The notes: generated from the letters alone by a model not told the origin. Shown: positions 56,308-56,397, numbered from the stretch's first letter. The stretch: DNA of 64,000 nucleotides from Escherichia coli (GCF_044324875.1 NZ_CP172185.1); one strand, 5' to 3'. Program-made: numbers and translations.

Positions 56308-56397
56308 ACAATATGTACCTCCGGTATACATATTACATGATTGAAATGAACCTTCAAGATACTTGTACCTTAACGGTACAAGGGTTTTAATTTCGTT
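56308..56397. promoter_or_regulatory. Divergent cro/cI promoter-operator region with palindromic operators
   Basis: Palindrome cttgtacc-ttaac-ggtacaag (56362..56382) and related imperfect palindrome atatgtacc-tccg-gtatacatat (56311..56333), sharing the half-site TGTACC. Confidence 0.5.

Follow-up and report, generated by a model that had tools for sequence, protein, structure and literature searches.

In phage lambda, the divergent cI and cro genes are separated by a right operator composed of three partially symmetric sites of 17 bp, whose centres are spaced by about 24 and 23 bp. OR2, the site used by cI to activate PRM, is located at -42, and the cI mRNA is leaderless. In the known lambdoid phages the operators are common to cI and Cro. 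A system with three right-operator sites and only two left ones is the Shiga-toxin phage 933W, according to the summary of Tyler et al. (2004) contained in PMC8065619. In the K-12 cryptic prophage e14, cohE counts among the essential genes of the Keio collection, which is explained by its being the e14 repressor (PMC5992433). From the same prophage, ymfM was described as an SOS-inducible division inhibitor, which is not under LexA control and has been proposed to be under that of cohE (bioRxiv 10.1101/2020.11.19.390815). These literature data are consistent with an active repressor of the kind considered here operating in vivo. For the group of phage SfIV, no N, cII or cIII homologues were reported (PMC3851460). 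In the searchable literature, a scope that lies outside the SfV and e14 genome papers, neither an experimental nor an explicit site-level definition of the e14/SfV operators was found, nor binding, footprint, EMSA, ChIP or transcription-start data on the repressor.

The locus described here belongs to a stretch of 64,000 nucleotides from Escherichia coli (GCF_044324875.1 NZ_CP172185.1), analysed as a whole and hereafter called the window, and it is the immunity region of e14 and of the Shigella phages SfV and SfIV. From cro through the operators and cI to PL, it is 98.6% identical to K-12 e14 (DH5a), 98-99% identical to SfV and SfIV, and 99.4% identical to coliphage PhiR49_1, with 100% identity to the latter across the segment comprising the right operator and the N-terminal part of cI. 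Over the 1.25 kb of segment 56050-57300, identity is 98-99% with SfIV, SfV, VIT_AJPSC, PhiR49_1 and PhiR29, and about 95.5% with Stx2c-converting phages, cdtI, 2H10 and Ayreon. At least 80% of this segment is held by 1322 of 5426 complete E. coli genomes, where its genes are annotated as ymfK (LexA family protein), ymfT and ymfL. The cI protein of the window is 100% identical to that of SfIV (tblastn). The genes and the terminator that define the region are the following.

55506-56075, minus strand: cII-like gene (ymfL homologue), Pfam Phage_CP76 (regulatory protein CII) with E 1.3e-13, annotated ymfL in E. coli genomes
56107-56307, minus strand: cro-like gene (ymfT/croE homologue) for a 66-aa helix-turn-helix protein, Pfam YdaS_toxin and HTH_3, both weak
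56398-57072, plus strand: gene for a cI-type repressor (ymfK/cohE homologue) of 224 aa, with a Peptidase_S24 domain and structural matches
57084-57103, plus strand: intrinsic terminator for cI transcription, with a T-run after GAACCTGCTTCGGCAGGTTT, conserved in relatives

A gap of 90 bp (56308-56397) separates the cro-like from the cI-like reading frame, and the repressor and cro genes are divergent with only this short regulatory region between them, which is the arrangement of a lambdoid switch. The small protein encoded on the minus strand matches YdaS_toxin with E 1.5e-5 and 25.1 bits, under the gathering score of 30, and HTH_3 with E 0.0065 (Pfam), and its homologues in SfV, SfIV and PhiR49_1 are annotated as Cro. 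The ymfL homologue is the second gene of the rightward early operon, which reads leftwards in the window; the CII-like domain detected in it by Pfam goes against the report of no cII homologue in the SfIV paper. The terminator of the cI transcript is also annotated as such in the SfV and Ayreon records.

The earlier note had pointed to two palindromic sites sharing the half-site TGTACC between cro and cI, and had reported no further copies in the region where a left operator would be expected. Both palindromes are present, one of them (56364-56380) as an exact match to TGTACC-N5-GGTACA and the other (56314-56330) with only one of its halves perfect. Since cI reads rightwards in the window, a lambda-style PL with its operator is expected just past cI, and it is there that a copy with one mismatch (57119-57135) and another with three (57139-57155) were found, so that the set grows to five sites with the addition of this left cluster and of a degenerate site at 56347-56363, both missed before. 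These five 17-bp sites, built on TGTACC-N5-GGTACA, are very probably the operators of the e14/SfV-type lambdoid immunity region, as judged from their sequence, position and conservation. Scores in the list refer to the position weight matrix (PWM) introduced below.

56314-56330, no strand: predicted operator site OR-A (OR1-like), TGTACCTCCGGTATACA, 2 mismatches to TGTACC-N5-GGTACA, PWM 14.7 bits, fourth in the window
56347-56363, no strand: predicted operator site OR-B (OR2-like, degenerate), TGAACCTTCAAGATACT, 3 mismatches, PWM 17.4 bits, third in the window
56364-56380, no strand: predicted operator site OR-C (OR3-like), perfect palindrome TGTACCTTAACGGTACA, 0 mismatches, PWM 21.6 bits, best match in the window
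57119-57135, no strand: predicted operator site OL1, TGTACCTTTGGGATACA, 1 mismatch, PWM 19.0 bits, second in the window
57139-57155, no strand: predicted operator site OL2, TGTGCCCAAGAGAAACA, 3 mismatches, PWM 11.7 bits, fifth in the window

The five occurrences of the half-site are confined to the two early-promoter regions on either side of cI. Together with its flanking bases, OR-C reads TTGTACC-TTAAC-GGTACAA, with perfect arms of 7 bp. OR-A (TGTACC-TCCGG-TATACA) retains 4 of 6 bases in its imperfect half, OR-B reads TGAACC-TTCAA-GATACT, and OL1 and OL2 correspond to TGTACC-TTTGG-GATACA and TGTGCC-CAAGA-GAAACA, respectively. OL1, the third good copy, was returned by both the mismatch scan and the repeat finder; it begins 47 bp past the cI stop codon, directly after the terminator at 57084-57103, and OL1 and OL2 together span 47-83 bp downstream of that codon. 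The negative of the earlier note on the left operator was therefore wrong, because the two sites lie just past the cI terminator, at PL. There is no room for a third left site between the terminator and the -35 of PL. The distances between centres are 33 bp from OR-A to OR-B, 17 bp from OR-B to OR-C and 20 bp from OL1 to OL2; OR-B and OR-C adjoin without a gap, and the left operator is about 770 bp away from the right one. Of the five sites, OR-B and OL2 are the weakest.

The position of the sites acquires its meaning from the three promoters that could be recognized in the region, two of them read by hand.

56330-56357, minus strand: PR (cro promoter), predicted, -35 TTGAAG at 56357-56352, 16-nt spacer, -10 TAATAT at 56335-56330, read by hand
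56363-56391, plus strand: PRM (cI maintenance promoter), predicted, -35 TTGTAC at 56363-56368, 17-nt spacer, -10 TTTAAT at 56386-56391, read by hand
57112-57139, plus strand: PL, TTGACA at 57112-57117, 16-nt spacer, CATAAT at 57134-57139, 11 of 12 bases to consensus

PL is the best promoter-like site in the promoter scan of the region; it is invariant in 29 distinct relatives, and the equivalent position is annotated as 'promoter' in phage Ayreon. OL1 fills its spacer and takes in the first two bases of its -10, and OL2, whose first base is the last of the -10, covers the predicted start at about 57146. A reading frame of 20 codons at 57140 is not regarded as a gene, because its ATG, inside the -10/+1 region of PL, precedes the predicted start of the transcript. 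PR is weak, with 8 of 12 bases to consensus, and falls under the threshold of the promoter scan, but at the position of its -10 all relatives have CATAAT, TAATAT or TAGAAT, and the TTG of its -35 is conserved. OR-A begins on the last base of the PR -10 and spans the predicted PR start, at about 56322-56325 on the minus strand, and OR-B overlies the -35. The register is the same at both early promoters, the last T of the -10 being the first base of OR-A at PR and of OL2 at PL; from the register at PR it follows that OR-A covers the PR start and OR-B its -35. The -35 of PRM, formed by the left half of OR-C, is also weak (3 of 6 bases to consensus); OR-C itself sits inside the PRM spacer. The predicted PRM start is the A of the cI ATG (56398), and the centre of OR-B lies 43 bp upstream of it. 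In all relatives the PRM -10, which reads TTTAAT, TCTAAT or GAGAAT, is found 6-7 nt ahead of the ATG, and their alignment holds no conserved Shine-Dalgarno sequence before cI. Because the PRM start falls on the ATG and such a sequence is missing from the alignment, a leaderless cI mRNA is predicted. In e14 of K-12, PR faces ymfT, ymfL and ymfM, and PL faces ymfJ, ymfH, xisE and intE.

The locus shares several features with lambda. Its cI and cro genes diverge from a right operator of three sites, each 17 bp long and partially symmetric; the middle one is about 42-43 bp upstream of the PRM start, and a promoter-proximal one lies within PRM. Another operator cluster is found on PL and, as a prediction, the cI mRNA is leaderless. 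The repressor also combines, as in lambda, a helix-turn-helix N-terminal domain with an S24 C-terminal domain carrying Ala-Gly, Ser and Lys. The half-site is different (TATCAC in lambda vs TGTACC here), and so are the spacings within the right operator (about 24 and 23 bp in lambda vs 33 and 17 bp here). The left operator, only about 770 bp distant, has two sites and not three; the N-terminal domain of the repressor is too divergent for any Pfam model, and the Cro of the window is a YdaS-type helix-turn-helix protein. With 933W, as summarised in the source cited above, the locus shares the number of sites, three on the right and two on the left, but operator sequence and repressor specificity are unrelated, and the 933W sites are experimental while those of the window are predicted only.

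A comparison with known immunity groups had been suggested in the earlier note; e14 and SfV, the nearest, carry the same five sites, with differences confined to spacers and single half-site bases. The right half of OR-A is TATACA in the window and TGTACA in e14, OL2 has TGTGCC in the window and TGTACC in e14 and SfV, and the spacers of OR-C and OL1 differ too. In the GenBank record of SfV, a 'putative operator region' at 26377-26445 is equivalent to window positions 56313-56381 and runs from the base before OR-A to the base after OR-C; the SfV and Ayreon records mark neither individual sites nor a left operator. The element itself, its genes and the span of the right operator are already in public annotation. 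To these are added here the individual map of the five sites, the place of the left operator and the support drawn from relatives.

The frequency of the motif in the 64-kb window argues against chance. An exact match to its 12 defined bases is expected 0.004 times per 64 kb, and two sites with at most one mismatch are observed vs 0.14 expected, a number reached by 0.9% of 1000 shuffles. The matches are also clustered, 6 of the 29 with up to three mismatches falling within 860 bp around cI vs 0.39 expected (binomial P = 2e-6). An independent PWM was built from the ten sites of two diverged relatives, Hafnia phage yong2 and Edwardsiella phage EPP-1, and symmetrised, with no window sites included; its five top matches in the window are precisely the five sites (21.6, 19.0, 17.4, 14.7 and 11.7 bits). 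The three best scores exceed the maximum of 50 shuffles (17.2), and that of OL2 falls inside the shuffle range. Other matches were set aside as due to chance: 25138-25154 and 23948-23964 (11.5 bits each) lie inside long reading frames of the structural region and within the shuffle range, 57042-57058 (10.7 bits) has a poor left half and lies inside the end of the cI coding sequence, and 56763-56779 (2 mismatches, 7.2 bits) is also inside cI.

The two diverged relatives were found by a sensitive DNA search, and their cI proteins are 79% (yong2) and 74% (EPP-1) identical to that of the window; both phages have all five sites, in equivalent positions. With the Hafnia and Edwardsiella repressors as queries, IMG/VR yielded about 30 further distinct regions, while a three-sequence repressor alignment used as query returned only 100%-identical repressors. 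The resulting alignments contain 27 distinct sequences for the right operator and 29 for the left, their cI proteins being 71-100% identical, and in all of them the five sites keep position and spacing, with no insertions or deletions between sites. Conserved half-sites around a freely drifting centre are seen in OR-C (half-sites 1.94 bits, central 5 bp 0.33 bits, 27 distinct relatives) and OL1 (half-sites 1.77 bits, spacer 0.32 bits, 29 distinct relatives). Among the near-identical e14, SfV and Ayreon, too, the few substitutions in OR-C and OL1 are all in the spacers, that of OR-C being found as TTAAC, CTATC or TTATC. The half-sites of OR-A have 1.81 bits (27 distinct relatives). The left half of OR-B (TGAACC/TGTACC) has 1.87 bits and the right half is weaker, at 1.46 bits. 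OL2 is kept in relatives as TGTAYC-N5-GRAACA, with 1.58 bits overall, 1.66 bits in the left half (TGTACC/TGTATC) and 1.49 bits in the right. Sequence conservation drops to zero straight after OL2.

The centres of OR-A, OR-B and OL2 are more conserved than those of OR-C and OL1, and each of them is under an obvious second constraint, namely the cro Shine-Dalgarno sequence, the TTG of the PR -35 and the PL start, respectively. The Shine-Dalgarno GGAGG (56318-56322, minus strand) lies within OR-A, the left half of which overlaps the cro ribosome-binding site, and OR-B overlaps the PR -35 with its centre and the PRM -35 with its last base. Because of these overlaps, a part of the conservation of OR-A and OR-B has other causes. 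This leads to a more restrictive reading, in which only OR-C, OL1 and perhaps OR-A are true operators, the resemblance of OR-B and OL2 derives from their overlap with promoters and starts, so that two or three sites remain and OR2-type activation is absent. The three mismatches of each of these two sites, the coincidence of the OR-B centre with the PR -35, the low information of both right halves and the OL2 score within the shuffle range all fit such a proposal. It is nevertheless improbable, because the left halves of OR-B and OL2 are conserved where no promoter hexamer explains it, the registers of both sites relative to their neighbours are fixed in all relatives, OR-B scores with the independent matrix above every shuffle, and OL2 has to the PL -10 the same register that OR-A has to the PR -10.

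The perfect inverted repeat at 56362-56382 could also be thought of as an RNA hairpin or an intrinsic terminator and not as a protein site. The terminator scan does list it, with an 8-bp stem and a 5-nt loop followed by GGTTTTAATT, but in relatives the T-run is 5 nt away from the stem and is part of the -10 TTTAAT, with variable bases in between. The arms show no compensatory changes, their sequence being invariant, and the half-site is reused at four other places where the halves would pair poorly. A terminator just before the start of cI would, moreover, block upstream transcripts reading into the gene. The comparative alignment thus rules out an intrinsic terminator at 56362-56382, and the general idea that the repeat acts as RNA is scarcely credible in comparison with a protein-binding palindrome. 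An Rfam search of 55000-60000 gave no match at the operators.

The last base of OL2, 57155, is also exactly where the homology to phages cdtI and 2H10 stops, and phages with different immunity regions start matching at 57151-57160. The operator set therefore ends on the boundary of a mosaic module.

The protein that would read these sites is a cI-type repressor in which Pfam recognizes Peptidase_S24 at residues 93-212 (E 1.5e-26) and nothing in the N-terminal 80 residues, even at E<=10. Its helix-turn-helix N-terminal domain extends over about residues 1-70. The closest solved relative of this domain is that of SPC32H Rep from a Salmonella phage (PDB 5D50), matched by phmmer over residues 1-73 with E 6e-4 and by Foldseek with an rmsd of 2.0 A over 73 aa and 38% identity. 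The likeness stops there, since only the N-terminal domain matches, residues 93-212 of the repressor described here being S24, and SPC32H Rep is inactivated by an antirepressor according to the PDB title 'Rep-Ant complex'. In the AlphaFold2 model of the repressor (mean pLDDT 71.6, about 80 in the N-terminal domain), helices are placed at residues 4-19, 22-28, 33-40 and 50-59, so the N-terminal domain is modelled as a lambda/XRE-like helix-turn-helix of 4-5 helices. By Foldseek, the C-terminal domain resembles lambda cI (8gmu, E 2e-9) and the whole chain the lambda repressor (3bdn); the protein also matches LexA structurally. The repressor has the motifs QAG (Ala100-Gly101), GDSM (Ser138) and FKRL (Lys176), and none of the residues G101, S138 and K176 varies among 28 repressor sequences. 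From these residues the repressor appears to be equipped for RecA-stimulated self-cleavage at Ala100-Gly101.

The LexA-like C-terminal domain, together with the SOS-inducible functions of e14 and a superficial TGT...ACA symmetry, could suggest that the sites are host LexA boxes. The E. coli LexA box is the 16-bp palindrome CTGT-N8-ACAG. In the window sites TGT and ACA are 11 bp apart, and not 8 as in that box, and the N-terminal domain of the repressor is of the lambda/XRE-like helical type and not the winged helix of LexA; furthermore, the e14 division inhibitor was reported to be outside LexA control (bioRxiv 10.1101/2020.11.19.390815). On account of the spacing, the sites do not qualify as LexA boxes, and the probability of such an identity is practically nil.

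A further question is whether cI is the protein concerned. The palindromes might be recognized by Cro alone, by the cII-like YmfL or by a host factor, with cI binding something else. Cro is 58-61% identical in the Hafnia and Edwardsiella relatives, and since it is conserved across the same relatives as the repressor, co-conservation cannot separate the two proteins. Three observations point to cI. The sites flank cI on both sides and lie on both early promoters, as expected for a maintenance repressor, and in the alignments of the relatives neither intergenic region holds any other conserved repeated motif. The third is the recognition helix. Within the group that has TGTACC, the N-terminal domain of the repressor is 69-90% identical in relatives, and the predicted recognition helix keeps T34, Q35, S37 and R38 throughout. 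In eight distant loci (L115-L122) the N-terminal domain is only about 30% identical, the helix is AAYLSQIKN instead of EPTQTSRFM, and a different palindrome, TAGCGAATCGCTA, is found three times upstream of cI; it is repeated downstream of cI in those of the eight loci with informative downstream sequence. The motif therefore changes with the reading head and stays when the head stays. The Cro-only, YmfL and host-factor readings are very unlikely. Recognition of the operators by the immunity repressor, already put forward in the earlier note, is supported by every computational test available: the recurrence of the sites, their conservation, the specificity contrast and the SfV annotation.

A likely model of the switch can be drawn from these elements. 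Dimers of the cI-type repressor (YmfK/CohE homologue) would bind the five sites, which the Cro-like protein (YmfT/CroE homologue) probably shares, as assumed from the lambdoid paradigm. On the right, OR-A on the PR start and OR-B on the PR -35 would together shut off cro and the genes behind it, and OR-B, at an OR2-like position upstream of the PRM start, may activate PRM, the cI mRNA from this promoter being presumably leaderless. With OR-C taking up the PRM spacer, excess repressor or Cro bound there would reduce the synthesis of cI. On the left, OL1 in the PL spacer and OL2 on the PL start would control PL. Upon DNA damage, RecA-stimulated cleavage at Ala100-Gly101 would free both PR and PL. 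A filling order like that of lambda is an assumption, because the most symmetric sites are OR-C and OL1 and not the PR-proximal one; lying as they do inside the PRM and PL spacers, they make filling order and cooperativity not transferable from lambda, and any order of site occupancy is therefore presumptive. The abutment of OR-B and OR-C may not allow their joint occupancy.

From a general perspective, the locus is an ordinary bistable switch of the lambda type, distinguished by its sequence specificity, and it introduces no new principle. It is conceivable, if rather doubtful, that the map has a wider reach, as a first operator definition, if none exists already, for the e14 YmfK/CohE repressor, with a geometry different from that of lambda, a possibly exclusive occupancy of OR-B and OR-C, a different logic of autoregulation and a predicted homoimmunity across genera. 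The last of these is predicted for E. coli, Hafnia and Edwardsiella phages from the conservation of the half-site and of the recognition helix. About one in four complete E. coli genomes has the e14/SfV immunity type, which is also that of SfV/SfIV, Stx2c and cdtI phages. For the biology of these elements, the importance of the result is modest. It offers a concrete operator model for the repressor that K-12 e14 has in common with SfV and SfIV, which are serotype-converting Shigella phages, and this model would explain the SOS release of the e14 excision genes, located behind PL, and of the division-inhibition genes, located behind PR.

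The left half-site of OL2, the operator lying over the start of the predicted promoter PL (window 57139-57155), reads TGTGCC in the window prophage, where the e14 prophage of K-12 (L203) and SfV (L001) carry TGTACC, the consensus. OL2 of the window prophage might be weakened by this one A-to-G substitution. Among the relatives from IMG/VR, several loci (L097-L101) have AAGCACC or AAGGGCC in place of the usual ATGTACC as the left half of OL1, the operator located in the PL spacer, while the right half of OL1 and OL2 are intact; the OL1 of these relatives may represent a naturally weakened operator.

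As far as the repressor genes are concerned, their start codons look misplaced in GenBank for Hafnia phage yong2 (L003) and Edwardsiella phage EPP-1 (L004), on comparison with the conserved MKT... start:

L003 1606-2280, cI of yong2, conserved MKT... start at 1606
L004 1520-2254, EPP-1 repressor annotated as "lexA_1", conserved MKT... start at 1586

The GenBank cI of yong2 begins at an internal Met (L003 position 1723), with loss of the DNA-binding domain, and the annotated start of "lexA_1" at 1520 makes the reading frame extend through the operators. In a further relative (L114 1201-1473) the repressor ORF is truncated to 90 aa, the operators are intact and the S24 domain is still encoded further downstream, out of frame; this locus is probably a decaying prophage or the product of a sequencing error. 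The repressors of eight other IMG/VR loci (L115-L122) form a distantly related group, with an N-terminal domain ~30% identical, longer linkers and, in some cases, a length of 330 aa. They are accompanied by their own operator palindrome, TAGCGAATCGCTA, distinct from the TGTACC type and present in three copies, spaced by ~24-25 bp, at about 110 bp upstream of cI; in some of these loci it recurs at about 130 bp downstream of the gene.

The leftward early region, 3' of PL, contains the following features:

57229-57248, bidirectional-looking terminator
57292-57513 (+), ORF of 73 aa whose Shine-Dalgarno sequence, GAGGAGG, is good
57485-57919 (-), 144-aa ORF, convergent and overlapping with the 73-aa ORF
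58042-58253 (+), match to the STnc100 sRNA family (Rfam, 42.8 bits, slightly below the gathering score of 47; E 4.8e-7)
58191-58245, weak DicF-like match (23 bits) at the 3' end of the STnc100 match

Neither ORF has a Pfam match, and no convincing ORF was found in the stretch holding the STnc100 match. In yong2, ARAGORN predicts a tRNA-Gly(CCC) gene (L003 2472-2545, + strand) ~130 bp downstream of PL/OL2, within the leftward early transcript; no counterpart was found in window 55000-60000.

A mosaic junction is observed at window 57151-57169. In window coordinates, homology to phages cdtI and 2H10 extends as far as 57155, homology to Stx2c phages and Ayreon stops at 57169, and in phages with unrelated immunity (Kati, SfII and others) the match starts at 57151-57160. 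Taken together, these ends and starts of homology place the recombination boundary at the outer edge of OL2.
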